This document shows, one piece after another, positions 2,769 to 62,924 of a stretch of DNA of 64,000 nt. The position numbers were made by a program, and so were the translations under genes. The DNA lies in assembly GCA_017480745.1 (NCBI GenBank), contig JAFUSA010000008.1:10530-74529 (forward strand). Reading direction: 5' to 3'. Position 1 is the stretch's first letter, and every line of letters begins with the position of its first letter. Source of the DNA: Alphaproteobacteria bacterium. Lineage in GTDB: Bacteria; Pseudomonadota; Alphaproteobacteria; RF32; CAG-239. The notes under the pieces are model-generated. The model searched no databases. It was not told the origin of the DNA and worked only from the letters and a program-made list of their open reading frames with translations.

Positions 2769-2922
2769 TCTTTTTACCTTTCTTTTTTTACTACCACCCT
2801 TAAAATAATAGAATTTATCGGAAAAGTAAAGCATTTTTTGATAAAAAATATTTGTAATAAAAAATTGCGATATTTTGCAAAAACAGTCTTGAATTTATGG
2901 GAAATTTGCATATAATGAAAAG

Positions 2923-3225
2923 CGTCAAGTTTTGACTGTGACACCAGAGACCTTATGAAATAGGTACATTGGACCCGGGGGCAGTGCCCGGCATCTCCAC
3001 CATTCAAGGGGATGAATCAGGTTTGACAGTGTATAGTAAAGATATGTGTTGTGTCCGGTGAGATACCACCGTTATCGGTTCAAATTAAATGAATGCAAAT
3101 GATAATTTTGCACCTGTTGCCGTAGCTGCTTAGGCAAAAGCAACGAAATAAATTCTTTGTGCTTTGGTTAGTATAAAGTGGGGGAGGAGCCACCCAGCAA
3201 CAGAACGGCTCGAAACTTGAATTAT
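2923..3225 (+). ncRNA. ssrA: two-piece (circularly permuted) tmRNA gene ssrA: acceptor piece ending ..CUCCACCA at 3002, coding piece starting GGGGAUG at 3008, tag reading frame 3094..3132 (ANDNFAPVAVAA*)
   Basis: Promoter TTGAAT(2889)-16-TATAAT(2911). T-arm-like hairpin CCGGGGGCAGUGCCCGG, then UCUCCACCA. GGGGAUG pairs in trans with CAUCUCC. Resume codon GCA, then AAT GAT AAT TTT GCA CCT GTT GCC GTA GCT GCT TAG. The 3' boundary is approximate. Confidence 0.75.
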
Positions 3226-8538: not shown

Positions 8539-8734
8539 TTTTTACATATTTTGATTGATTTTTAAATTTTTTGAGATATAATAGATTTAGAACTTCGGTT
8601 TGAGAGAGGATTCAAAACTCTTGTATATTTAGAAAGTGGCGCTGAAAATTTATACTTCTATTAAAAAGTTGCACAAGCATTAAAAAAGTTCTTGCTTTTT
8701 GTGTAAAAACGGTTTAACAAAAAAAATGTTCAAT

Positions 8735-8810
8735 GGTCCCATCGTCTAGTGGCTTAGGACGCGGCCCTCTCAAGGCTGCAACACGAGTTCGAATCTCGTT
8801 GGGATCACCA
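8735..8810 (+). tRNA. tRNA-Glu (anticodon CUC)
   Basis: Hand-folded cloverleaf: acceptor GGTCCCA/TGGGATC, anticodon loop CTCTCAA, T-arm GTTCGAATC, 3' CCA encoded. Terminator hairpin 8817..8850. Confidence 0.8.
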
Positions 8811-12537: not shown

Positions 12538-12587
12538 TTATGCGTACATGATATATGAAAAATTTTTATTTAGCAAGCTTTTTTATT

Positions 12588-12850
12588 TGACTTTTAGATT
12601 TTTTATGGTAGTATAGAAACAGAACTTCGGTTCGGAGCCTTCATAAGCTCTTATTAATTCCGATGCCTTGCATCGTTAATAGACATGATAAATATCTCCG
12701 ACATGGTTGGGGAGCGTTTTGCGGATGTTCAGGGTGTTAGCCTAAAGGTAAGACGGATCATTTGAATTAATATGGTTTATGAACTCTCCCGACCGCCGTT
12801 TGGCGGTTAGATTTTTATTAATATATAACTTTAACTTAGGAGATAAAATT
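12588..12850 (+). promoter_or_regulatory. class-A pilin-cassette promoter (TTGACT..TGGTAGTAT) + ~230-nt conserved structured 5' leader ending in terminator-like hairpin GACCGCCGTTTGGCGGT + U-run
   Basis: Near-identical to leaders at 35296..35555(-), 40133..40519, 46082..46350 and 62657..62924(-). Internal hairpin CUCCGAC/GUUGGGG shows compensatory changes between copies. Confidence 0.7.
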
Positions 12851-13669
12851 ATGAGAAATTTAGAAATAAAAAATAATGATTGCCACGCTGCGCTCGCAAT
12901 GACGAAAAGCGTGCAGTCCGGACGCTCACTTCTTCCGGAGAGTGGTGCAGATGCGCCGACTGTTTTGAGCGCCGTGTACACAGATAGTACACCAGCGAAA
13001 AACAGGCAAGCAGATGTGCCGCAATACGGGAGAAGTATGATAGAAATGTTGGGTGTGTTGGCCATAATCGGTGTTTTATCGGTTGGCGGAATCGCCGGAT
13101 ATAGTAAGGCGATGACTAAATATCGCATCAATAAAACCATTGAGCAGGTAACCCTTATTGCCGGTAATGTGCGTGCCTTTTGGGGACCACAGAAGAATTA
13201 TGAAGGGGTGTGTTGTAATGGAGGTGATTGCAACGCCTCCGGTTGCTATGGGCATTCCGGCGTTGATGCAAACGGATATCTTACCGCTGATTACAATGGC
13301 TGTCCGATAGTTAAAAAAGCCAAAATATTCCCTGATGAAATGATTACTGTAACTGATGGCAAGATTATGTCTATTAGCAATCCTTTCGGTGGTGGGGTTA
13401 GTTTAAATCAAACGAGTAAAAGTTATAGTGATAATGATAACAAAGCCTTTATTATCGAACTTTATAATATCCCAGAAGAAGCGTGTATTGAATTAGCTAC
13501 TTATGATTGGACAGTTGCCGGAGCAGATATAATAGGTTGGGAATATGCGGATATAACATACACAAAAGTTCCGCTTGATTTGGAAACCGCGGTTAAACAA
13601 TGTGAAGAATCTCATGATTTTTTTACCTTTGTGTTTGATGCAGATACGGTTTCATGGATGAATAACTAA
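12851..13669 (+). CDS. type IV pilin-like protein (prepilin-type N-terminus; long 57-aa leader peptide with in-frame 37-codon insertion), paralog 1
   Basis: Start at ATG after AGGAGATAAAATT. Motifs ...YGRS|MIEMLGVLAIIGVLSVGGIAGY (G-1, E+5), KKAKIFPDEM, PEEACIELATYDW, and C-terminal Cys (AVKQCEES). Confidence 0.7.
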   Translation: MRNLEIKNNDCHAALAMTKSVQSGRSLLPESGADAPTVLSAVYTDSTPAKNRQADVPQYGRSMIEMLGVLAIIGVLSVGGIAGYSKAMTKYRINKTIEQVTLIAGNVRAFWGPQKNYEGVCCNGGDCNASGCYGHSGVDANGYLTADYNGCPIVKKAKIFPDEMITVTDGKIMSISNPFGGGVSLNQTSKSYSDNDNKAFIIELYNIPEEACIELATYDWTVAGADIIGWEYADITYTKVPLDLETAVKQCEESHDFFTFVFDADTVSWMNN

Positions 13670-13674
13670 ATATC

Positions 13675-13707
13675 CGCCGGCTCGAGTGAGTCGGCGGTTA
13701 CTTTTCA
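13675..13707 (+). terminator. conserved cassette terminator CCGCCGGCTCGAGTGAGTCGGCGG + T-run
   Basis: The same hairpin recurs after the pilin-like genes at 41247 and 47135. Confidence 0.65.
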
Positions 13708-18022: not shown

Positions 18023-18261
18023 TTGACTTTTTGATTTTTTATGATATAGTCGATACAAGATGAGGTAAAATTCATCTGGGGTGTCAAGACCTCTTAGAGT
18101 CGTCGTGAAGACGTTAAATGATTTCCGGCCTTGGTCGGAAGGTGGGTGAATAAGGTCAGTCGAATAATCCACACTGTTACTCTAATAGTCTTGAACTTCC
18201 GGCCGCCTCAACATGGCGGTTGTTTTGGTGTAATGTCAACAATTTAGAAAGGAAGTTTACT
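18023..18261 (+). promoter_or_regulatory. class-B pilin-cassette promoter (TTGACT-16-TGaTATAGT) + ~200-nt conserved leader ending in hairpin CCGGCCGCC..GGCGG + U-run
   Basis: Shares promoter and 3' hairpin with class A, but has a different middle (ACAAGATGAGGTAA..). Second copy at 53303..53546. Confidence 0.7.
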
Positions 18262-18909
18262 ATGAAAAACTTAGAGATAAAAAATAATGATTGCCACGCT
18301 GCGCTCGCAATGACGAAAAGCGTGCAGAGCGGTCGTTCAATGATAGAGATGCTTGGAGTGTTAGCTATCATCGGTGTTTTGTCTGTCGGTGGAATCGCCG
18401 GATATTCAAAGGCAATGATGAAGTATAGAATTAACAAAACTATTGAGCAAATAACACTCATTGCCGGCAATATTCGCACCTTTTTTGCAAACCAGAGAAA
18501 TTATAAAGGCGTATATTGTTTTTGTAATAACGGCAGTTGCACAGGTCAATCTTCCGGTGATGGCTGTCCTATACATAAAAAAGCCAAAATATTCCCTGAT
18601 GAAATGATTACCATAACTGATGGTAAGATTATGTCTATTACCAATCCTTTCGGTGGTATGGTTGATTTAACAGCAGAGGAAGATAATAAAGCATTCAGTA
18701 TACGATATATAATTCCGGAAGAAGCCTGTATTGAACTTACTTCTCGGGATTGGTCAAATTCTAATATTAATTATATTGGCTTTTATTATAACCATCATCA
18801 AGAGTATATTAAAGTACCATTAAATATTGACGATGCTATTCAACAATGTTCAGCCACGGCGGCTGATACAAATAGCGGAGATGCTATTATATACTTATAT
18901 AGTGAATAA
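18262..18909 (+). CDS. type IV pilin-like protein, paralog 2
   Basis: Start MKNLEIKNNDCHAALAMTKSVQSGRS|MIEML... Cys cluster CFCNNGSCTGQSSGDGCP, then KKAKIFPDEM, PEEACIEL and C-terminal QQCS. Confidence 0.7.
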   Translation: MKNLEIKNNDCHAALAMTKSVQSGRSMIEMLGVLAIIGVLSVGGIAGYSKAMMKYRINKTIEQITLIAGNIRTFFANQRNYKGVYCFCNNGSCTGQSSGDGCPIHKKAKIFPDEMITITDGKIMSITNPFGGMVDLTAEEDNKAFSIRYIIPEEACIELTSRDWSNSNINYIGFYYNHHQEYIKVPLNIDDAIQQCSATAADTNSGDAIIYLYSE

Positions 18910-28367: not shown

Positions 28368-29027
28368 TTAATAAAACTTCCACGCAATAGCATTGCTTGA
28401 AGGATGCATGCAAGCTTCCGCGGCTTCAACCAAAGTAAGCGGATCCGAAGTTGTGTTGGTTGTTCCCGCTGCTGCCCCACAAGCAATGGCTTTTCCATAT
28501 CCGGCAATTTTTGTGCAACCTTGATAAACTTGCTGCATACTTTCAATATCTTCGTTTATACCAATAGCAACAAAACCTGAACTGCTGGCAGAACCCCAAT
28601 CACGAGAAGCAATAGAAATGCAGGCTTCCCGCGGAATATAGTAATAATAAATCATAAAAGCGGCGTTATCCCCCTCTTCAAGCAAATCGCCGCGCATAAC
28701 AGCAACGGCTTTACCGAAAGGACTTTTCAAAGATTTTGTGCCATCAGCGGCAATATTTACCATTTCATCAGGTAACACTTTTGATTTTTCCAACAAGGTA
28801 ATATTTGTATCTGTTCCCAAAGGAGCATAATCATCTTTTGTGCCAAACAAAGTTCTTAATGTTGACGCAATATACGAAACCTGACTCATTGTTCTATTAA
28901 TTCTGAATTGCATCATTGCCTTTGAATATCCTGCAATTCCGCCAACACTTAATACACCTATAATAGCCAACACGCCCAGCATTTCTGCCATACTGCGACC
29001 ACTGCTGATTTTACACTCATTTTTCAT
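28368..29027 (-). CDS. type IV pilin-like protein, paralog 3 (short leader MKNECKISSGRS|MAEML; lacks the long conserved 5' leader RNA)
   Basis: Start after GGAG, with its own TTGCAA..TATATTATA promoter. PREACISIASRDWG and C-terminal AAEACMHPS. Confidence 0.65.
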   Translation of the reverse strand: MKNECKISSGRSMAEMLGVLAIIGVLSVGGIAGYSKAMMQFRINRTMSQVSYIASTLRTLFGTKDDYAPLGTDTNITLLEKSKVLPDEMVNIAADGTKSLKSPFGKAVAVMRGDLLEEGDNAAFMIYYYYIPREACISIASRDWGSASSSGFVAIGINEDIESMQQVYQGCTKIAGYGKAIACGAAAGTTNTTSDPLTLVEAAEACMHPSSNAIAWKFY

Positions 29028-35295: not shown

Positions 35296-35555
35296 TTTTA
35301 AATCTCCTTCTTGAAAAAATTTGACATTAATAACTAATCAACCGCCAAACGGCGGTCGGGAAGTAAGAAAATCATAGAATTGCAAATGATCCTCGTAATC
35401 TTTAAGCTAATGCTCTGAACATCCACCACGAGCTCCCCAACCCAAGTCGGAGATACATCAATATAACGGCGTCAAGCGCCGACAATTCTAAGAGCTTTCT
35501 TAGGGCCCGAACCGAAGTTCAACTCCTATATTATCACAAAAAACGCAAAAGTCAA
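35296..35555 (-). promoter_or_regulatory. class-A pilin-cassette promoter + structured leader (minus strand)
   Basis: Reverse complement matches the 12588..12850 element end to end. Confidence 0.7.
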
Positions 35556-39670: not shown

Positions 39671-39725
39671 AAAACAGCAGATACTTGCTAAATTATATGT
39701 GTTTTTATATAAGTATCTTGTTCTG

Positions 39726-39798
39726 CGGATGTAATTCAATGGTAGAATAGAAGCTTCCCAAGCTTATAACGGGGGTTCGATTCCCCTCATCCGCTCCA
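39726..39798 (+). tRNA. tRNA-Gly (anticodon CCC)
   Basis: GCGGATG acceptor, anticodon loop TTCCCAA, GGGGGTTCGATTCCCCT T-arm, CCA encoded. Terminator 39806..39833. Confidence 0.85.
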
Positions 39799-39872
39799 AT
39801 AACACAAAAAGCACCGTTTTCGGTGTTTTTTTGCGTTATTTAGGACTAAGTATTGAATCGAAACCCCGTTTA
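39781..39872 (+). repeat. direct repeat copy 1: tRNA-Gly 3' end (18 nt) + terminator + 60 nt downstream
   Basis: 92 bp; 2 mismatches versus 40013..40104. Confidence 0.8.
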
Positions 39873-40012
39873 ACGGGGGCCGGAGAAAAAAAATTGCTTC
39901 GGTGAAGCAATTTTTAACGACGGGCGAAGTGAACGAGCTGAGTAAGCAAGCGAAAGCGCCGCGCAACGAAACCGAGAACGAGTGACCGAAGCAAGCGTAG
40001 CGATGTAAGAAA

Positions 40013-40104
40013 ATTCCCCTCATCCGCTCCAATAACACAAAAAGCACCGTTCACGGTGTTTTTTTGCGTTATTTAGGACTAAGTATTGAATCGAAACCCC
40101 GTTT
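40013..40104 (+). repeat. direct repeat copy 2 (att-like duplicate of tRNA-Gly 3' end)
   Basis: Seen by eye; separated from copy 1 by a 140-bp GC-richer segment. Confidence 0.8.
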
Positions 40105-40132: not shown

Positions 40133-40519
40133 TTGACTTTTAGATTTTTTATGGTAGTATAGAAACAGAACTTCGGTTCGGGGCTTTAGCAAGCTCTTAT
40201 TAACCTCGGTGTTTTTTAACATCGTCAAAAAATATGATGAATATCTCCCAACATGGTTGGGAAGCCTGTGATGGATGTACAAGGAATAATCCCAAAGGTT
40301 GCAGGAATCATTTAGGTTAATATGATTTGCTAACTTCCCGGCCGCCGTTTGGCGGTTTTTTCGTTATAAAATAACCATTACTCCGGTTATTTTTAAGGAA
40401 AGAACCACAGAGCAAGTGACCGAAGCGTAATTAGCGATTGCCAAGCGTTAGAGTAGGCAGAGCTTATGAAGCAAGAAGTTTTTTACTAATAGATATTTCT
40501 CAAGAAAGGAGATAAAATA
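40133..40519 (+). promoter_or_regulatory. class-A pilin-cassette promoter + leader, with ~150-nt extra segment between the terminator hairpin (40337..40361) and the SD
   Basis: Matches the other class-A leaders. The extra segment contains AGTGACCGAAGCGTAATTAGCGATTG, related to GAGTGACCGAAGCAAGCGTAGCGATG at 39986. Confidence 0.7.
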
Positions 40520-41230
40520 ATGAAAAAAATAAATAATCAAAATGGTCGTTCGATGATAGAAATGTTGGGTGTGTTGGCTATAATCGGTGTTTTGTCGGTT
40601 GGTGGAATCGCCGGATATTCCAAAGCCATGATGAAGTATCGTATTAACAAAACTATTGAGCAAATAACACTTATTGCCGGTAATGTGCGTGCATTTTTTG
40701 CTTCGCAAAAAAATTATGATGGTTTAGATTCTGCCAACGTAGGTAGTGATAATGGTTTAGCGCTAATTAAAAAAGCTAAATTGGTAAATGAAGAAATGAT
40801 TGATGAAAATAATGAAATTGTTGATGAAGATTTATCTCACACTCATCATATCTTTAATTCATTCGGAGGTGGTGTTGCATTGTGGGACGATTATCAAGGA
40901 ACTGCCAATGTCCCAGGAACCCCTCATACTAAATATTTTCAGATTATATATTTTCGTTTACCACAAGAGGTATGTATAGAATTGGTAACTCAAAATTGGA
41001 GTAATTCGGCCATGGGTTTGAAAGTATTGATTATAAATTCTAAGGAAGAGCTTGATGAATTTGGCAATGTAAAGGATTCGTGTTCAGATAACAATGGTTT
41101 AATAAACGGTACTAAGACAATTGCCTGCCCGAATGGAAAAACTGTACCGATTCCGGTACCGTTGGATATAGCAGTTGATGCTTGCAATTGTCCAAATAAT
41201 GACTGCACCATTATATGGGGATTTAAATAA
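40520..41230 (+). CDS. type IV pilin-like protein, paralog 5
   Basis: MKKINNQNGRS|MIEML...; KKAKLVNEEM; PQEVCIELVTQNW; C-terminal DACNCPNNDC. Confidence 0.7.
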   Translation: MKKINNQNGRSMIEMLGVLAIIGVLSVGGIAGYSKAMMKYRINKTIEQITLIAGNVRAFFASQKNYDGLDSANVGSDNGLALIKKAKLVNEEMIDENNEIVDEDLSHTHHIFNSFGGGVALWDDYQGTANVPGTPHTKYFQIIYFRLPQEVCIELVTQNWSNSAMGLKVLIINSKEELDEFGNVKDSCSDNNGLINGTKTIACPNGKTVPIPVPLDIAVDACNCPNNDCTIIWGFK

Positions 41231-41246: not shown

Positions 41247-41276
41247 CCGCCGGCTCAGATGAGTCGGCGGTTTTAT
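41247..41276 (+). terminator. conserved cassette terminator CCGCCGGCTCAGATGAGTCGGCGG + TTTTAT
   Basis: Same hairpin as at 13675 and 47135. Confidence 0.65.
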
Positions 41277-46081: not shown

Positions 46082-46350
46082 TTGACTTTTAGATTCTTTA
46101 TGATATAGTAGAAACAGAACTTCGGTTCGGAGCTCTGAAAAGCTCTTAAATACTTCGGTGTTTTAGATAATACCGTGAAAGTGATATAAAAATATCTCCC
46201 GAAAAGGTCGGGAAGCTCGTAACGGATGTTCAGAGCTTTTAGCTCAAAGGTTGCGAGAGTCATTCAAGTATTTATGATTTTTCAGCTCTCCCGACCGCTA
46301 TTTGGCGGTCATGTTTTTAATGTATAACTATTAGCAAAGGAGATAAATTT
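46082..46350 (+). promoter_or_regulatory. class-A pilin-cassette promoter + structured leader
   Basis: Same architecture, with hairpin GACCGCTATTTGGCGGTC + ATGTTTTT before the SD AAAGGAGATAAA. Confidence 0.7.
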
Positions 46351-47118
46351 ATGATAAACTTAGAAATAAAAAATATAAAGAGTCATCCCTCGCTGAGCCT
46401 TGCCAAGGCGAAAGCGTCAAGGGATCTTCAAATTAATTTTAATCAAGCGGAAGATGCCTTGACGATTCCTGCGGAATCAAAGCATGACTATAAGTGTGGC
46501 TCCGCCACACAGAGCGGAAGAAGCATGATAGAGATGTTGGGCGTTCTTGCAATAATCGGTGTTTTATCGGTTGGTGGAATCGCCGGATATTCCAAAGCGA
46601 TGATGAAGTATCGTATTAACAAAACTATTGAACAAATCACTTTAATTGCCGGTAATGTGCGTGCTTTTTGGGGACCACAGGGAAATTATAATGGTTTCTA
46701 TTGTGATTGTTCAAGTGAAAGTTATGATTTTTGCTCAGGTCAAGCAAATAATGATGGTTGTCCTATAATTAAAAAAGCCAAATTATTGCCGGATGAAATG
46801 CTGACTATTGATAGCACAACAGGCAAAATTACCAATATTACCAACGCGTTTGGCGGATTATTGTGGACAAAAGATCTCAATTATGGAGGATTTATATTGG
46901 AATTTCGAGATATTCCAACAGAAGCCTGCATTGATATCATTACACAAAATTGGAAAGATGTAAAAGTAGAAAATATAGGGGTAGCAAATGGAGCCGGACG
47001 GCCTGATGTAAGCGCAACGCCGATTGACATAGACACAGCCATTAATTTATGTCAACATGGTGATCATAATAATTTACATTTTCAAGTAGAAAGTAAGGAT
47101 ACGAGTTGGTTGGATTAA
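46351..47118 (+). CDS. type IV pilin-like protein, paralog 6 (62-aa leader peptide)
   Basis: MINLEIKNIK...ATQSGRS|MIEML..; CDCSSESYDFCSGQANNDGCPIIKKAKLLPDEM; PTEACIDIITQNW; C-terminal NLCQHG. Confidence 0.7.
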   Translation: MINLEIKNIKSHPSLSLAKAKASRDLQINFNQAEDALTIPAESKHDYKCGSATQSGRSMIEMLGVLAIIGVLSVGGIAGYSKAMMKYRINKTIEQITLIAGNVRAFWGPQGNYNGFYCDCSSESYDFCSGQANNDGCPIIKKAKLLPDEMLTIDSTTGKITNITNAFGGLLWTKDLNYGGFILEFRDIPTEACIDIITQNWKDVKVENIGVANGAGRPDVSATPIDIDTAINLCQHGDHNNLHFQVESKDTSWLD

Positions 47119-47134
47119 ATAATCTATTAAATAT

Positions 47135-47166
47135 CCGCCGGCTCTAATGAGTCGGCGGTTTTTAAT
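47135..47166 (+). terminator. conserved cassette terminator CCGCCGGCTCTAATGAGTCGGCGG + TTTTTAAT
   Basis: Third copy of the same hairpin. Confidence 0.65.
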
Positions 47167-53302: not shown

Positions 53303-53546
53303 TTGACTTTTGATTTTTTTGTGTTATAGTAAACACAAGATGAGGTAACTTATCTGAGGTATCCTAACCTCTTAGCATTCGTCTTTATAGACGTAAATTA
53401 TTCCGACAGTGGTCGGAAGGTCGCGGAATAGAATGGATATTTAATATGCGACACTATTTAATGCTAATAGTTAGGAACTTCCGGCCGCCTCATTAGAGGT
53501 GGTTATTTTAATGTAATTCAACAACAAAAATGAAAGGAAGTTTACT
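53303..53546 (+). promoter_or_regulatory. class-B pilin-cassette promoter (TTGACT-16-TGtTATAGT) + leader
   Basis: Matches 18023..18261 in the ACAAGATGAGGTAA.. block, ..CCTCTTAG.., GGTCGGAAGG, and the final CCGGCCGCC..GGTGG hairpin + TTATTTTA. Confidence 0.7.
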
Positions 53547-54182
53547 ATGAATAACTTTGAAATAAAAAATCAAAACGGACGCTCTATGATAGAAATGTTA
53601 GGCGTGTTGGCAATCATTGGCGTATTATCTGTTGGCGGAATCGCCGGATATTCTAAGGCGATGACTAAATATCGCATCAATAAAACGATTGAGCAAATAA
53701 CGTTAATTGCCGGCAATGTGAGAGCATTCTTTGCTCCGCAAGGAAATTATGACGGATTAAATCCACTTGTTGACACAGGAAAAGCAATTATCAAAAAAGC
53801 TAAACTTGTGCCCGATGAAATGTGGGACGGTAATAATATTAAAAATGTTTGGGGAAATTCTGTTTCCCTCGATTCGGCGTCTAAATCTTCTTTCGGGGAT
53901 AAGAAGGCATTTAAGATACAGTATTTAATGCCAACGGAATATGATATATGTATTGAAATTCTTAGTTACGATTGGACAAATGCCGGAGTAAAGTTTATAA
54001 TTCTTTCAGGTCCGTCATCCGTCAAAAATGCTAAAGCGCCGTTTAGCTTGGAACAGGCTATTGATTTTTGCACTAAATGGCTGAGTAGTCCTGCAAATAA
54101 GACTATGGAAGCAATACCCTCACAATTTTATTTTGATGTTAATGATAACTGCATCCACGGCGAGGGAACTGGTTGTAATTAA
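53547..54182 (+). CDS. type IV pilin-like protein, paralog 7
   Basis: MNNFEIKNQNGRS|MIEML..; KKAKLVPDEMW; YDICIEILSYDW; C-terminal DFCTKW. Followed by terminator AAGGCGGAG..CTCCGCCTTTTCT. Confidence 0.7.
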   Translation: MNNFEIKNQNGRSMIEMLGVLAIIGVLSVGGIAGYSKAMTKYRINKTIEQITLIAGNVRAFFAPQGNYDGLNPLVDTGKAIIKKAKLVPDEMWDGNNIKNVWGNSVSLDSASKSSFGDKKAFKIQYLMPTEYDICIEILSYDWTNAGVKFIILSGPSSVKNAKAPFSLEQAIDFCTKWLSSPANKTMEAIPSQFYFDVNDNCIHGEGTGCN

Positions 54183-55048: not shown

Positions 55049-56881
<1,833 letters not shown>

Positions 56882-56889
<8 letters not shown>

Positions 56890-57217
56890 TTTTGATGATT
56901 TACACAGCCGTGATGTGCAAAAAAAACTGCTACATAAAACGGAATTATTGAAAAATCGTCCGGAAAACCGTTTTAATACAGACTTCGGAATGATAGCTTC
57001 TTTGGGTGGAGTTATTATTGTTCCCATTCTTATCGGAGTGTTTTCAGGCAGTTATTTAGAAGAAAAATTTCCTCAACATTTTTCTTGGCGTCTGTCTTTA
57101 ATATTTTTGGGTTTTGTTTGGGGAATAATAAACGCTTATTTGTGGATTAAGAATGAAAACAGAAAAATAATACAAAACAATTCGGAAGATACACAAAAGA
57201 GGGATAAACATGAATAA
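56882..57217 (+). CDS. N-ATPase accessory membrane protein AtpQ (Atp1/gene 1 family)
   Basis: 111 aa with 2 TM helices; sits at the position of 'gene 1' in N-ATPase operons. Confidence 0.55.
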
Positions 57218-57551
57218 CGATCTGCTTAATACTTTGTGGCAACAGACGGAAATATGGCGTTTATTTGCTACATTTTTTGCCGGAATAATCGTAGGATATG
57301 TGTATTTTGCCAGTTTGCATTGGAGCATAGAACATTTGGGCGAATTTAAGCATAAATATCGTATGTTTGCTACGGTTGCCTTGTTGCGGATGTCAATGTT
57401 TTTTGCCGTATTGGTTTTAGCGTGTCAACGCAATGTCATTTTGATTTTGCTATATATTTTGACTTTCTTTTTCACACGCATTTTTATGATTTGGCACTTT
57501 AAAAATTCAGACGATAAAAAAGAGGAAAAACGCGATGGAATGGAAAGTTGA
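57210..57551 (+). CDS. N-ATPase accessory membrane protein AtpR
   Basis: 113 aa with 3 TM helices and an intramembrane Arg (VALLRMSMFFAVL), as in AtpR. Confidence 0.6.
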   Translation: MNNDLLNTLWQQTEIWRLFATFFAGIIVGYVYFASLHWSIEHLGEFKHKYRMFATVALLRMSMFFAVLVLACQRNVILILLYILTFFFTRIFMIWHFKNSDDKKEEKRDGMES

Positions 57552-58287
57552 TTTTTCTAATCTCCTTGATTTTCCTCTGATTGATGAAGAAATCAGAATG
57601 ACCAACTTTGATGATATTGATATCATCAGTATTGGGGGTATAGGAATAAACGTTACCATCTTCAACAGTTGGATAGTTATTGCTCTAATCACCCTTTCTG
57701 CGTGGCTAATTACCCGCAATTTAAAATACGATAGAGAAGTTTCAAAAATTCAAATATTTTTAGAAAGTCTGGTTATGTGGCTGAAAAATGAAGCAAAAGA
57801 AACCAGTGGCTCAAATAATTTGCAATATTTAGGTATGGCAATGGGGCTGTTTTGCTTTATTGTTGTTGCCAATCTGCTGACTTTTATTCCATGGTTTAGG
57901 CCACCTACGGCTTCACTCAGCACAACAATGGCTTTGGCATTTATCGTTTTTTTGGCAATTCCTTATTTTGCCATTAAAAATGCCGGAATAAAAGCTTATT
58001 TTCGCAAATTCATAGAACCTATACCGCTTATGTTGCCAATGAACATATTCAGCGAATTTTTTTCAGTGTTGGCTATGGGTTTACGTTTGTTTGGCAATAT
58101 GCTAAGCGGAGTTATGTTTGCCGGTATTTTAAGTGCATTTATTCCTTTTTTTGCACCTCTTACCATGCAAACTTTGGGGTTACTTACAGGATCAATTCAA
58201 GCTTATATTTTTGCTTTGCTGGCGATAGTTTATTCGTCCGGCGTAAAAGAAAATAAAATCACTGAAATTAATTTAGAGGAGAAATAG
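57535..58287 (+). CDS. atpB: N-ATPase a subunit
   Basis: Stator Arg in GLRLFGNM, 5-6 TM helices. Confidence 0.8.
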   Translation: MEWKVDFSNLLDFPLIDEEIRMTNFDDIDIISIGGIGINVTIFNSWIVIALITLSAWLITRNLKYDREVSKIQIFLESLVMWLKNEAKETSGSNNLQYLGMAMGLFCFIVVANLLTFIPWFRPPTASLSTTMALAFIVFLAIPYFAIKNAGIKAYFRKFIEPIPLMLPMNIFSEFFSVLAMGLRLFGNMLSGVMFAGILSAFIPFFAPLTMQTLGLLTGSIQAYIFALLAIVYSSGVKENKITEINLEEK

Positions 58288-58288
58288 T

Positions 58289-58558
58289 ATGGATTCTTAT
58301 GCAATTATCGGGGCAGTTTCTATTTTTGGAGCATGTATCTGTATGGGAATAGGTAGTTTAGGGTCAGCTTTAGGAGAAGGCAATGCTGCCGCTGCCGCAA
58401 TTTCGGCAATGGCGCAACAGCCGGATGAAGCAAGTCGTTTGCGTTCTACAATGTTTGTATCTTTGGCAATGATTGAAACTTCATCTTTATATGCCTTGTT
58501 AATAGCTTTTTTGACTTTGTATGCCAATCCGTTTTGGAATTATGCCATCAATCAATAA
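58289..58558 (+). CDS. atpE: N-ATPase c subunit (hairpin; helix-2 ETSSLY motif plus helix-1 Glu)
   Basis: 89 aa, GxGxGxG helix 1 containing ALGEG, and helix 2 AMIETSSLYALL. Confidence 0.85.
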   Translation: MDSYAIIGAVSIFGACICMGIGSLGSALGEGNAAAAAISAMAQQPDEASRLRSTMFVSLAMIETSSLYALLIAFLTLYANPFWNYAINQ

Positions 58559-58574
58559 ATATTGAGGAGCGACT

Positions 58575-59351
58575 ATGGGTATCGACTTATTTACCTTTAC
58601 GGCGCAGGTTATTAACTTAATAATTTTGCTATTTTTACTGCGTAAGTTTTTATATATTCCGGTATTGAAAGCCGTTGATGAACGGCAAAAGCTTATCTCG
58701 GCCGAATTAAACAGCGCAAAAAACGCTCGTCGCAGAGCCGAGCTTTCCGCGCATGAATATGAAAACAAAATGCAAGAGTTAGAAACACAAAAACAAACAA
58801 TTTTGCTACAAGCAAAAGAACAGGCCGAAAAGCTTTCTAAACAGTTGCAATCAGACGCCAAAAAACAATACCAAAAGTCGCAAAAACAATGGAAAGAGCG
58901 TTTGCTCTCCGAGCAAGATAATTTTGAAACCGCTTTGCAAAAAACAGTGGCAGAACATTTTAACCGCTTTGCGCAAAAAGCATTACAGGAAATGGCCGGA
59001 ACAGACGTTAACAACTTAATGCTACGGCAATTAAAGGAAAAAATAAAACGCACAACATTGCGAGAAAGAGCCGATTTTGCTAATGCGTTCAGCGGCAAAA
59101 AAATTGTTATTGAAAGTGCAAAAACGTTGTCAACCGAAAGCAAAAAAGACTTAGAAACATTTTTGCATCAACAATGGAATTTGCCGGAAAATCTTAAATT
59201 TTCCTATGTAACAAATCCAGAGCTTATCAGCGGCTTGGCTTTGCAAGCACAAGAGCAACGCATTGAATGGAGTTTAAGCGGTTATTTGCAAGACTTTCGC
59301 AAAAATATGAATGACGAAATTCTGCAACTGTTAACGAAAGGCGAAAGATAA
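58575..59351 (+). CDS. atpF: N-ATPase b subunit with delta(OSCP)-like C-terminal extension
   Basis: N-terminal TM helix, long coiled coil, and a C-terminal ISGLALQAQEQRIEWSLSGYL delta-like segment. No separate delta gene. Confidence 0.7.
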   Translation: MGIDLFTFTAQVINLIILLFLLRKFLYIPVLKAVDERQKLISAELNSAKNARRRAELSAHEYENKMQELETQKQTILLQAKEQAEKLSKQLQSDAKKQYQKSQKQWKERLLSEQDNFETALQKTVAEHFNRFAQKALQEMAGTDVNNLMLRQLKEKIKRTTLRERADFANAFSGKKIVIESAKTLSTESKKDLETFLHQQWNLPENLKFSYVTNPELISGLALQAQEQRIEWSLSGYLQDFRKNMNDEILQLLTKGER

Positions 59352-60868
59352 TGGATACGGAAAAAACATTTGCTGCCATAGATAGAAGCATAAAAAAAAC
59401 AAATGCTAAATTAAAAAAAGAAGAAGTTAGTGTTGTGCGCTCAATTTCCGCCGGCGCTGCTATTGTCAGCGGTTTGGAAAAGGTAGAAATGGAGGAACTG
59501 TTAGAATTTCCGAACGGTGTTTTCGGAATGGTGCAAACACTTAACAGAGATTCTGTCGGTGTAGTTTTTTTGGATAGTTCCCGTTCCATAAAGGCAGGTG
59601 ATAGAGTGCAACGAACCGGCCGCGTTTTAGATGTTCCGGTATCGGAAAATCTGCTCGGGCGCGTTATCAATCCACTTGGAACTGCGTTAGACGGTAAAGC
59701 TCCAATTGCTTTCAGCGAGCGACGCAAAGTAGAGGTAGAAGCCGTGCCGATTATGGACAGAGCACCGGTAGATACACCGTTGCAAACCGGCATTAAGGCC
59801 GTTGATTCGTTTACGCCTATCGGACGCGGGCAACGTGAGCTTATTTTAGGAGATCGTCAAACCGGTAAAACGGCTATTGCACTCGATACTATGATTAACC
59901 AAAAAAACAGCGGCGTTATAAATATTTATTGTGCCATCGGGCAGCGCAATTCCGCTGTTTCCGGAGTTATTGCCGATTTGGAAAAATATGATGTTTTGCA
60001 AAATACAATAGTTGTTGTCGCTTCGGCTAATGACGAGGCCGGAATGCAATATGTTGCCCCATATGCGGCCACCTCAATCGGCGAATATTTTATGGAAAAA
60101 GGACGTGATGTGCTGATAGTTTATGATGATTTAACCAATCATGCCAGAGCCTACCGACAAATGTCGTTGTTGTTGCGTCGACCACCGGGACGCGAGGCTT
60201 TTCCGGGAGATATTTTTTACATTCACTCACGTCTGTTGGAGCGTTCAACACATTTGCGAGAGGAACTTGGCGGCGGTTCACTTACTTCTTTGCCGATTGT
60301 AGCAACCGAAGCCGGTAACATTTCCGCCTATATTCCTACTAACATTATTTCCATTACCGACGGGCAAATTTATTTATCGGCTCCAATGTTTCAAAAAGGT
60401 ATTATGCCGGCGATAGACACGGGAAAATCCGTTTCACGCGTAGGTGGAGATGCTCAATTACCGGCTTATAAATCGCTAATCGGACCGCTTAAATTGTTTT
60501 ATGCTCAATTTGAAGAGTTAGAATCATTTACAAAGTTCGGCACTCAACTGGATAAGGAAACACAAAAACGCATTGCCCGAGGACAAGCCATTCGCTTTGT
60601 TTTGGAACAAAGGCAATACCATCCTTTGCCGGCGGCAGATCAAATTGCCGTATTTATGAGCGCCAACGCCGGTTTATTTGACGGTTTGAACAATGAGAAG
60701 AACAATAAAGCGCAACAAATCGTTTTGGATGTTTTTCATACTCAGTTTGCCGATTTGCAGGCAGAAATAAATGCCCGAAAAAAACTGACCGAAGAGGAAA
60801 TAGCAGAATTAATTAACGCCATCAAACAAGGTTTAATACGAGAGGAATTATATTCTGATGCCGATTGA
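59351..60868 (+). CDS. atpA: N-ATPase alpha subunit
   Basis: Walker A GDRQTGKT. Confidence 0.9.
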   Translation: MDTEKTFAAIDRSIKKTNAKLKKEEVSVVRSISAGAAIVSGLEKVEMEELLEFPNGVFGMVQTLNRDSVGVVFLDSSRSIKAGDRVQRTGRVLDVPVSENLLGRVINPLGTALDGKAPIAFSERRKVEVEAVPIMDRAPVDTPLQTGIKAVDSFTPIGRGQRELILGDRQTGKTAIALDTMINQKNSGVINIYCAIGQRNSAVSGVIADLEKYDVLQNTIVVVASANDEAGMQYVAPYAATSIGEYFMEKGRDVLIVYDDLTNHARAYRQMSLLLRRPPGREAFPGDIFYIHSRLLERSTHLREELGGGSLTSLPIVATEAGNISAYIPTNIISITDGQIYLSAPMFQKGIMPAIDTGKSVSRVGGDAQLPAYKSLIGPLKLFYAQFEELESFTKFGTQLDKETQKRIARGQAIRFVLEQRQYHPLPAADQIAVFMSANAGLFDGLNNEKNNKAQQIVLDVFHTQFADLQAEINARKKLTEEEIAELINAIKQGLIREELYSDAD

Positions 60869-61736
60869 AGCCTTAAAAAGACGAATTAAAACAACCGAAG
60901 ATTTGCGCGAAATTGTCAATAATATGAAAATGCTTTCGTCGGTGAGTATTGGTCAATATGAACAAGCAAACGCCGTTTTAGATAAATATCGCCGCAACAT
61001 TCGCGATGCCTTTCATGCATTGATAATTAATCACGGAATTCCAAACATTAATAAACAGGCAATTATCAAAAATAAATATCTGTATGTTTTAATCGGCTCG
61101 GATAACGGAATGATCGGACGCTTTAATAAGGAAATTATTGAGGCCGTAAACAAGGATATGAAGCAACGTCATATTGCCAAACAAGATATTATTTTTATGA
61201 TTTTAGGCAAGCGTTTGGCAATGATGTCTGAGCAAACCGGTTGGAATTTATGGACATGTTACGGTATGGTTAACTCAGTAAAAGCCGTTGCCGGTTTGGC
61301 TGGAAGCGTAATTTTAAAAATAGATGAAGCAACCCGCAAAGAGCATGTTACAAATGTTTCCGTTTGGTTTCATCAGCGCAAAAACAACTCAACCGTTAAT
61401 TTGGAAAAACGCGATATTATTCCGTTTGCCGTAGAGCGTTTGCATAAGCTCAAAGCGCAAAAATGGGAAACGAATAATATTCCGATGTTACCGGTGGAAC
61501 CGCAAAAAATGTTTGCTGCTTTGGTCAAAGAAATGTTGATGAGTGCACTTTCAAAATTGATTAATTCTTCTTTGGCGGCGGAGCATTATACGCGTATGAC
61601 CAATATGCAAAATGCGGAAAAAAATATTGATGAAAACTTGGCTATTATGAATTTGGAATATCAACAACAGCGCCAAGAGGAGATAACCGACGAATTAATC
61701 GACGTTATCTCCGGCGCCGAAGCTATGAAAAAATAA
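60858..61736 (+). CDS. atpG: N-ATPase gamma subunit
   Basis: 292 aa; N- and C-terminal coiled-coil helices; overlaps atpA. Confidence 0.75.
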
Positions 61737-62656: not shown

Positions 62657-62924
62657 AATTACATCTCCTTTTACAGAAAAACTGTTGATAAAAGACAATG
62701 CCGCCCAAAACGGCGGCAGGGGAGTTCGTAAATCATGTTATGGTAAATGACCCTTGCAATCTTTAAGCTAACGCTCTGAACATCCACTGCAAGCTCCCCG
62801 ACCAAATCGGAGACATTTATCACATATCCAATAACGGTGTAAGAAACACCTACCATAACAAGAGCCTACGACAGCCCCGAACCGAAGTTCTGTTTTACTA
62901 TACCACAAAAGTGGCAAAAGTCAA
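62657..62924 (-). promoter_or_regulatory. class-A pilin-cassette promoter + structured leader (minus strand)
   Basis: Reverse complement matches the class-A consensus, including GAACTTCGGTTCGGGGC, CTCCGATTTGGTCGGGGAG and the CTGCCGCCGTTTTGGGCGGC + T-run hairpin. Confidence 0.7.

Follow-up and report, generated by a model that had tools for sequence, protein, structure and literature searches.

The stretch of DNA analysed here, referred to as the window, comprises 64,000 nucleotides of contig JAFUSA010000008.1 (positions 10,530 to 74,529 of the forward strand; assembly GCA_017480745.1) from an Alphaproteobacteria bacterium. It contains eight type IVb prepilin genes, seven of which are preceded by a leader—a structured RNA of ~190 nt, previously undescribed, that probably acts as a transcription attenuator. 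The encoded paralogs share an invariant N-terminus, G followed by RSMIEMLGVLAIIGVLSVGGIAGYSKAM, and match the Pfam families PilS_N and Bundlin as well as, more weakly, the N-terminal methylation motif; the leaderless pilin gene of the window lies at 28368-29027 on the reverse strand. The first leader, copy A1, is encoded on the forward strand. Its promoter, located by a promoter scan at 12587-12614, consists of the -35 element TTGACT, a 16-nt spacer, and the TG-extended -10 element TAGTAT. The leader RNA runs from a predicted start at 12620 to the end of a U-run at 12818, is matched at 12620-12813 by a covariance model of its class with 199.6 bits, and has a minimum free energy (MFE) of -64.5 kcal/mol (z = -3.78). 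An intrinsic terminator at 12791-12818, identified by motif, fold, and terminator scan, combines the stem GACCGCC/GGCGGUU (12791-12808) with the downstream sequence AGAUUUUUAUU. The Shine-Dalgarno sequence AGGAGA (12838-12843) and a prepilin gene starting with ATG at 12851 follow (together 12838-13669).

Four more leaders belong to the same class, class A. Copy A2 (35331-35555, reverse strand, 188.7 bits) comprises a promoter at 35555-35528, an RNA at ~35522-35331, and a terminator at 35358-35339, and precedes the pilin gene 35295-34672. Copy A3 (40133-40364, forward strand, 213.7 bits) has its promoter at 40133-40160, its RNA at ~40166-40364, a terminator with a clean U-run at 40340-40357, and a pilin gene at 40520-41230, while the corresponding elements of copy A4 (46082-46320, forward strand, 198.2 bits) are found at 46082-46109, ~46115-46320, 46293-46310, and 46351-47118. 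In copy A5 (62690-62924, reverse strand, 195.7 bits), the promoter starts from 62924, the RNA spans ~62892-62690, the terminator 62718-62699, and the pilin gene 62656-61982. Two leaders of a second class, class B, which differ from class A in sequence, are both encoded on the forward strand: B1 (18023-18230), with promoter 18023-18050, RNA ~18056-18230, terminator 18200-18222, and pilin gene 18262-18909, and B2 (53303-53512; z = -5.74), with promoter 53303-53330, RNA ~53336-53512, terminator 53483-53504, and pilin gene 53547-54182.

The diagnostic class-A motif GAACTTCGGTTCGGRGC occurs five times in the window as compared with 0.09 expected matches, and thereby bears out the positions that the original prediction, made from the letters of the window alone, had given for five copies, which lie at 12587(+), 35555(-), 40133(+), 46082(+), and 62924(-). 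The terminator motif yielded four matches with at most three mismatches against an expectation of 0, the fifth class-A copy carrying an insertion of 1-2 nt. Other parts of the initial description had to be revised. The 35-nt promoter string presumed to open all five copies is exact in two of them and replaced by variants in the rest, and the leader length of ~230 nt includes the promoter, the RNA from predicted start to U-run measuring ~175-205 nt. That class B belongs to the same family had also escaped notice. A covariance model built from class A only and run on the window, a check proposed together with the prediction, recovers both class-B leaders end to end (18023, E = 7e-7, 28.2 bits; 53303, E = 5e-9, 35.7 bits) and so brings the number of copies to seven. 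Beyond these, all that the model returned in the window was an echo on the reverse strand (10 bits) and, at 57416-57435, a partial match of 20 nt with 5.1 bits (E = 3.9); the sense strand scores 198 bits versus 10 bits for the reverse strand of one copy. Since the class-A model finds both class-B leaders and nothing else convincing, the seven copies constitute one strand-specific RNA family.

Relatives of the leader were sought outside the window. The pilin family has at least 555 matches in GTDB species genomes, all in metagenome-assembled genomes (MAGs) of uncultured gut or rumen Alphaproteobacteria, and the class-A covariance model finds leaders beside some of these pilin genes. The family was extended by iterative nhmmer searches, which gave 27 instances (the seven of the window and 20 from other genomes), and by a DNA-pattern scan of metagenomes, which added 65 leaders, so that more than 85 relatives are available overall from gut and rumen Alphaproteobacteria. 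A set of 58 complete instances, made up of the metagenomic leaders and the pattern-matching copies from genome loci and the window, was analysed further.

The secondary structure derived from the five class-A copies with RNAalifold contains 59 pairs, 27 of which are compensatory, and is termed here the terminator (T) fold. It consists of a 5' hairpin, P1; a closing helix, P2, of ~23 bp, subdivided into P2a (4 bp), P2b (10 bp), and P2c (9 bp); a four-way junction with the hairpins P3, P4, and P5; and the terminator hairpin. In copy A1, the 5'-terminal hairpin P1 (GAAC-UUCG-GUUC, 12622-12633) is followed by the 5' strand of P2 (12634-12660, with P2a at 12634-12637, P2b at 12640-12649, and P2c at 12652-12660), by P3 (12661-12675), by P4 (12695-12713), in which CUCCGAC pairs with GUUGGGGAG, by P5 (12715-12755) with its internal loop and apical stem (P5b, 12732-12743), and by the 3' strand of P2 (12764-12789). 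P1 is invariant in class A, and other hairpins take its place in relatives. The internal hairpin with compensatory changes that had been noticed at the outset is real and corresponds to P4, where pair 89-97 reads AU in two copies, GC in two, and GU in one. The local hairpin GGRGC..GCTCT belongs to an alternative fold; the most stable fold uses these bases as the 5' strand of the long closing helix.

In the five class-A copies, 95.2% of the cells of the T fold are paired and 26 of the 59 pairs show double changes, a result reached by none of 500 shuffles, and pairing falls to 33-50% when the partners are slid by 1-3 columns; the double changes include 13 of 19 P2b/c pairs and six of eight P5a pairs. 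Across 19 relatives outside class A, the corresponding values are 96.4% paired cells and double changes in 24 of 32 pairs, with 0/500 shuffles reaching this level and slid controls at 28-53%. The helices counted in these relatives are those that MAFFT aligns reliably, namely P2a/b, part of P4, P5a/b, and the terminator, whereas covariation of P2c and P3 was counted within class A only because a global MAFFT alignment of 26 copies misaligns both; RNAalifold applied to that alignment recovers only P5, the terminator, and two helices of the alternative fold (H1 and the antiterminator, see below). Pairs were counted on the very sequences that had yielded the structures. The slid controls and the permutation test described below are regarded as fairer comparisons than the shuffles. 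Single-sequence folds of class-A and class-B leaders show the same architecture (z = -3.8, -3.2, and -5.7), unconstrained MFE folds do so in all 26 analysed instances despite very different sequences, and the long P2 and P4 are present in the free folds of 53 of the 58 complete instances.

A second pairing, between the 3' arm of P4 and a complementary segment farther downstream, defines the alternative, antiterminator (AT) fold. The arm, termed segment 3 (GGUUGGGGAG, 12705-12714 in A1), reads GGUYGGGRAG in class A and GRCYGGAAG elsewhere. Its partner, segment 4 (CUCUCCCGACC, 12784-12794), is made up of the 3' strand of P2a and the first four nucleotides of the 5' arm of the terminator. Two local hairpins accompany the antiterminator helix in this fold: H1 (GGAGC/GCUCU, 12634-12651), which joins the 5' strand of P2a to a pyrimidine stretch within the 5' strand of P2, and H5 (GAUCAU/AUGGUU, 12756-12777), which joins the P5/P2 linking region to the 3' strand of P2. 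P5 is common to both folds. T and AT are mutually exclusive, since the antiterminator helix uses a strand each of P4 and P2a together with part of the terminator, and both strands of P2 go into H1 and H5. A pseudoknot in which the antiterminator and P2 coexist was considered and rejected because it looks sterically impossible: a helix of ~20 bp would hold the pairing strands apart at its two ends, and no linker could bridge them.

The AT fold is conserved as well. In an unbiased scan of the 19-sequence alignment for stacks of pairing columns, segment 3:segment 4 ranks second, behind P2b and above P5a, the terminator, and P4. With H1 and H5 included, 96.4% of the cells are paired in the 19 relatives (0/500 shuffles reach this value); the antiterminator helix itself is 97.4% paired, with double changes at four of its ten pairs (for instance GC:10/AU:8; UA:10/CG:7/AU:1; AU:17/UA:2), and all four pairs of H1 have undergone double changes between GC and AU. 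Segment-3 positions that are paired as G.U in P4 form Watson-Crick pairs in the antiterminator. Class A has 98% pairing in the antiterminator (12705-12714 with 12784-12794) and 100% in H5, and H5 accounts for the invariant UCAUU and AUGAUUU motifs of this class. Among 63 unique sequences including the metagenomic ones, the four outer pairs that are free of the search pattern are 98-100% canonical (U-A 47, C-G 13; A-U 29, G-C 21, G-U 12), and observed pairing amounts to 94.6% compared with 86.6 +/- 0.9% after permutation (1000 permutations, maximum 90.2%). Hence, as expected of an attenuator, the leader possesses an alternative helix that covaries and would compete with the terminator by overlapping the first four nucleotides of its stem.

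The signals that flank these structures are also conserved. Within the scanned stretches of the window, a promoter-like -35/-10 site with an extended TG and a terminator-like site were found in four of four class-A copies and one class-B copy; a -35/-10 pair lies just 5' of P1 in 26/26 analysed instances, and 56 of the 58 complete relatives have retained both the terminator and its U-run. An intrinsic terminator—a GC hairpin and a U-run—therefore stands between promoter and start codon, both in the window scans and in the relatives. The placement of the terminator 20-40 nt before the Shine-Dalgarno sequence and ATG, part of the original prediction, holds for nearly all copies and fails for the one at 40133. 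In the window, start codons are located 32-36 nt past the scanned terminator stems except in A3, where the spacer measures 156 nt from the aligned leader end and 162 nt from the scanned stem, and in 22 of 23 pilin cases the ATG follows the terminator at 24-38 nt, the exception again being A3. Promoter scans of window stretches detected no promoter-like site between terminator and ATG. GGAAG-type ribosome-binding sites co-occur with CUUCC tails; a possible anti-Shine-Dalgarno pairing of segment 4 would be short and inconsistently extended.

The genes downstream of the leader are diverse. When the family is sampled by its RNA, 22 of the 62 metagenomic instances with a readable downstream gene precede pilins, to which a few frameshifted or truncated pilins can be added (~40%). 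The others are followed by genes for lipoproteins, an outer-membrane beta-barrel Opa-like protein, a leucine-rich repeat protein of the BspA type, ankyrin and tetratricopeptide repeat proteins, glycosyltransferases of three families (GT2, GT92, and Gly_transf_sug), a hexapeptide acetyltransferase, an Mrr-type endonuclease, an XRE regulator, a pseudouridine synthase, and an uncharacterised protein family of ~85 residues. Of the 26 genome instances, too, two are found before genes other than pilins, namely one for a secreted protein and a lipoprotein operon. In the related loci, on the other hand, no leader accompanies 74 of 97 pilin starts. As only ~40% of the instances sampled by RNA lie before pilins, the element is not pilin-specific; it is a portable module of promoter and leader that serves genes of mainly surface or accessory function.

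A search of the whole window with Rfam 15 at gathering thresholds detected only a transfer-messenger RNA (tmRNA) and three tRNAs, with no family matching the leader, and permissive scans of four leaders returned no riboswitch family. In such permissive scans, relatives from three subgroups are matched end to end over the segment 3-segment 4 domain by sRNA-Xcc1 (RF02221), whose model aligns over positions 1-87: L037 with 32.7 bits (E = 2e-4), L070 with 25.3 bits (E = 0.018), L077 with 32.5 bits (E = 0.085), and L071 with 29.5 bits (E = 0.46). Scores of 25-33 bits stay below the gathering score of 53 bits, and a true member reaches 72.6 bits; the proposed relationship is thus sub-threshold and would extend to class A by transitivity only. 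At the level of structure, the independently curated consensus matches the alternative fold: the three-way junction of sRNA-Xcc1 has a ~9-bp outer helix that corresponds to the antiterminator, a first hairpin with AAUA-type loops that corresponds to P5, and a second hairpin that corresponds to H5. The true member, on the P. aeruginosa plasmid NZ_CP093017 (L081, 1198-1280), is the single usable example obtained by BLAST of the sRNA-Xcc1 consensus against plasmids and lies in a gap of the annotation, 38 nt before a gene of the BRO family. Its outer helix, GUCGGGAG/CUCCCGAC, is nearly the same as that of class A, GUYGGGRAG/CUCCCGAC.

sRNA-Xcc1 was characterised as an 88-nt RNA of Xanthomonas by northern blot and end mapping in Xcc 8004 and starts at the outer helix (PMC2996969); it is annotated as trans-acting. 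It has been located upstream of symE in integron cassettes (10.1101/2025.06.18.660453) and upstream of an ORF6N gene in APSE phages (10.1101/2020.03.17.996009), and Xylella carries seven copies (PMC12189769). The BRO, symE, and ORF6N genes found downstream suggest that the family is generally a leader element. The AT domain and sRNA-Xcc1 have in common a 9-bp G/C-rich outer helix, an AAUA-type first hairpin, a short second hairpin, a pyrimidine-rich tail, and a position directly upstream of a gene on the same strand. Several differences exist as well. The domain described here forms part of a leader of ~190 nt and shares sequence, in its 3' strand, with an intrinsic terminator, and the 5' half of the leader (P1, the 5' strand of P2, P3, and the 5' arm of P4) can refold it into a four-way junction, whereas the P. 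aeruginosa sequence—one example—is without such an upstream partner or an overlapping terminator. The host range differs, too: the leaders are chromosomal elements of gut Alphaproteobacteria, while sRNA-Xcc1 occurs in Xanthomonas integron cassettes, Xylella islands, plasmids, and phages. In the leaders, a distance of ~85-100 nt separates the sRNA-Xcc1-like domain from the single promoter-like site upstream.

From the promoter and terminator signals, the two covarying and exclusive folds, the short spacing between terminator and ATG, and the kinds of gene found downstream, we infer that the leader regulates its gene in response to a signal. It would do so as a default-off, riboswitch-like terminator/antiterminator attenuator choosing between two folds in cis, a reading to which we assign a probability of roughly 0.6. 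The claim that the leader is a functional cis-regulatory RNA of the attenuator or riboswitch type rather than the product of mere duplication, which the original prediction had put forward, is thus upheld by the covariation, the terminator, the distance to the ATG, and the alternative pairing that overlaps the terminator. Transcription would start at a strong sigma-70-type promoter a few bases before P1. In the T fold, P2 would close the four-way junction of P3, P4, and P5, the GC-rich hairpin and U-run would form next, and RNA polymerase would terminate 20-40 nt before the ribosome-binding site, leaving the gene off. In the AT fold, the 5' strand of P2 would fold on itself (H1), the 3' strand of P2 would fold with the P5/P2 joining region (H5), and the 3' arm of P4 would form 9-10 bp with the 3' strand of P2a and the first four nucleotides of the terminator stem; the terminator would thereby be blocked and the polymerase would read into the gene. 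P4 would serve as an anti-antiterminator by sequestering segment 3. Termination is presumed to be the default, given that at the decision point T surpasses AT in stability by ~9 kcal/mol. The choice might be shifted towards AT by a second messenger or another small ligand, by an RNA-binding antiterminator protein, or by changed polymerase kinetics. Since the downstream genes are heterogeneous and mostly of the surface or accessory type, a global signal or a dedicated antiterminator protein seems more plausible than a pathway metabolite. Attenuation by a leader peptide was considered and rejected: A2 lacks the ATG-initiated frame of A1, a 1-nt indel shifts this frame in A3, and the variation is compensatory at the RNA level.

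Several observations weigh against the attenuator. Forcing the antiterminator on full-length leaders costs 8-25 kcal/mol, its median cost on transcripts cut just before the 3' arm of the terminator is still ~9 kcal/mol, and AT pairs appear in none of the free MFE folds; T is therefore the ground state, and read-through would need an effector or a kinetic trap. The helices of AT other than the antiterminator are local hairpins that are able to form first during transcription. With ~23 bp, the closing helix greatly exceeds the length of P1, the helix gated by ligand in known riboswitches, and would thus call for a strong effector or a kinetic mechanism. U-runs are broken up in several window copies, for example GGUUGAUUAGUUAUU in A2, so that termination may be leaky. 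The internal-loop sequence of P5 in class A is unlike that of other classes, which leaves few universally conserved unpaired bases. No single coherent pathway or transport function, as would be expected of a metabolite riboswitch, is encoded downstream, and the heterogeneous genes give no clue to a ligand. The permissive Rfam scans (E <= 10) of a class-A copy gave only a terminator-only match to Hrs13 and did not return sRNA-Xcc1. The shuffle controls take no account of relatedness, and whole clades share many of the double changes. Finally, termination and read-through themselves are predictions from modelled folds.

The same features have to be weighed against other explanations. A more far-reaching version of the attenuator would make the leader an ON switch of a new riboswitch class, with the three-way junction resembling sRNA-Xcc1 as its aptamer; it would sense a global signal such as a cyclic-dinucleotide second messenger for a regulon of surface and host-interaction genes (type IVb pilin paralogs, Opa-like porins, lipoproteins, glycosyltransferases, and repeat proteins). 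sRNA-Xcc1 would then be a cis-acting sensor domain instead of a trans-acting small RNA (sRNA), and classes A and B, whose P5 loops differ within one genome, would take different inputs; taken as a whole, this proposal is rather doubtful. The energetic preference for T, by ~9 kcal/mol, would also suit a constitutive structured 5' untranslated region, in which P1 and the junction shield the mRNA from 5'-end-dependent decay, P2 is a possible RNase III site, and the terminator-like hairpin dampens expression by a fixed fraction or protects the RNA after processing. Such an expression or stability module is in keeping with the location of P1 a few nucleotides from the predicted start in every copy, with the long and nearly perfect duplex of P2, and with diverse downstream genes, many of which are expected to encode highly expressed surface proteins. 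It leaves unexplained, however, the compensatory upkeep of the exclusive helices H1, AT, and H5, the overlap of AT and terminator, the conserved U-run, and the match of AT to an independent Rfam family, and it appears unlikely. The downstream genes also bring to mind protein-dependent processive antitermination: pilins, Opa-like proteins, glycosyltransferases, acetyltransferases, and a restriction enzyme resemble the regulons of RfaH-, UpxY-, and LoaP-type factors as well as phase-variable genes.

A site for such a protein (NusG-like, ANTAR-like, or other), or else an element acting at the level of DNA—a duplicated promoter cassette or a recombination substrate for pilin variation—would also agree with the many copies per genome. 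The protein-dependent form is in effect a sub-case of the attenuator with a protein as effector, inseparable from it here; the match to the PyrR model (17 bits, E = 3.5) is noise, and ANTAR-like dual hexaloop hairpins were not seen. The DNA-only form is contradicted by the strand-specific G.U pairing and the compensatory changes, and near-identical copies and terminal repeats are lacking. Together these two forms are considered improbable. With its own promoter and terminator, the leader might instead give rise to a stand-alone sRNA, either as the ~190-nt terminated transcript or as a processed, ~90-nt sRNA-Xcc1-like core acting in trans, read-through being secondary; sRNA-Xcc1 has been detected as an 88-nt RNA (PMC2996969) and is annotated as trans-acting. 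However, a same-strand ATG follows at 24-38 nt nearly always, before many unrelated gene families and with no intervening promoter, a fixed arrangement which indicates that the downstream genes depend on the promoter of the leader. Seven divergent copies in 64 kb, each serving one gene, and the location of sRNA-Xcc1 itself directly upstream of symE, ORF6N, and BRO-family genes likewise make a primary role in trans quite unlikely.

As an attenuator, the leader would share features with established systems. The cyclic di-GMP riboswitches (GEMM-I, and c-di-GMP-II before the type IV pilin operon of Clostridioides difficile) are likewise terminator leaders upstream of pilin, surface, and adhesion genes, and the C. 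difficile regulon is heterogeneous, comprising pili, adhesins, and signalling proteins (PMC11477304, riboswitch table). In contrast to these riboswitches, the leader has no Rfam match to either class even at E <= 10, and its architecture is that of a four-way/three-way junction. Leaders bound by PyrR and T-box leaders, both three-element attenuators, follow the same logic in that an upstream hairpin sequesters the 5' strand of an antiterminator whose 3' strand overlaps the terminator. Here, however, the PyrR model gives only the 17-bit match (E = 3.5), T-box models give no significant one, specifier and T-box sequences are absent, an additional long-range helix of ~23 bp joins the choice, and the genes are unrelated to pyrimidine or aminoacyl-tRNA metabolism. 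A literature search on pilin leader RNAs or the pilins of these bacteria retrieved nothing relevant.

The neighbourhood of the leaders shows further features. The pilin 3' ends at 13674-13697, 47135-47158, and ~41247-41270 share a conserved 10-bp terminator, CCGCCGGCTC..GAGTCGGCGG, which makes each pilin a self-contained cassette of promoter, leader, gene, and terminator. An in-frame insertion of ~108 nt is present in the leader-peptide region of the prepilin at 12925-13035, inside 46351-47118, and in L016, L072, L008, L022, and L077, its site being the same in pilins from different genomes. Inverted repeats (ACTTCTTCCG / CGGGAGAAGT) form its ends and a hairpin lies inside it; it brings a second copy of the 'GRS' cleavage motif and looks like a small palindromic mobile element akin to the Rickettsia palindromic elements; it may be tolerated because the leader peptide is cleaved off. 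A conserved DNA motif, ~ATAACTAAAGNTATATA, is found 15-25 nt upstream of the -35 element in L037, L065, L079, L048, L035, L041, and many leaderless pilin loci of related MAGs. It is independent of the presence of a leader, occurs in weaker versions (AAAGATATATAA) upstream of A5 and A1 in the window, and may be a transcription-factor site. Other pilin paralogs (L017, L018, L028, and L067 in JAZNJJ01; L004, L019, and L069 in JAFVEP01; L032, L047, and L051) have different hairpin-rich conserved upstream elements, such as TCCGAAAAAAAGGATCCCTTTTTTCGGACA repeated twice or GGGGGGTAA..TCACCCC, and pilin paralogs may thus possess several leader families.

A partial copy of the module at 8539-8640 has a promoter-like site as well as P1 (GAACUUCGGUU) and a hairpin resembling H1; the remainder of the leader is absent, and ~95 nt of unrelated sequence lead to a tRNA at 8735-8807. 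Around A3, a 92-nt direct repeat (39780-39871 / 40013-40104, 98% identical) duplicates the 3' end of the tRNA 39725-39795 plus a terminator, and a repeat family (39965-40004 / 40399-40438) has one copy between the 92-nt repeats and the other inside the long spacer (~160 nt) of A3, an arrangement that suggests a small insertion or integration scar. The operon at 55052-61736, located between two pilin cassettes, was considered as pilus machinery and instead encodes an N-type F-ATPase containing AtpR / gene 1; no pilus assembly genes were identified in the annotated parts of the window. The tmRNA, at 2885-3215 (200.5 bits), is of the two-piece (permuted) alphaproteobacterial type and thereby marks the window as alphaproteobacterial DNA.

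If the attenuator reading is correct, little-known Alphaproteobacteria of gut and rumen would use one portable RNA switch to control numerous genes for surface functions and host interaction, large sets of pilin paralogs among them, and the two evolutionarily maintained folds make this switch directly testable. It would add an attenuator in which a long-range helix of ~23 bp, in place of a short P1, competes with the antiterminator. It would also provide the first mechanistic hypothesis for sRNA-Xcc1, an orphan RNA that is annotated in many genomes, integrons, plasmids, and phages.

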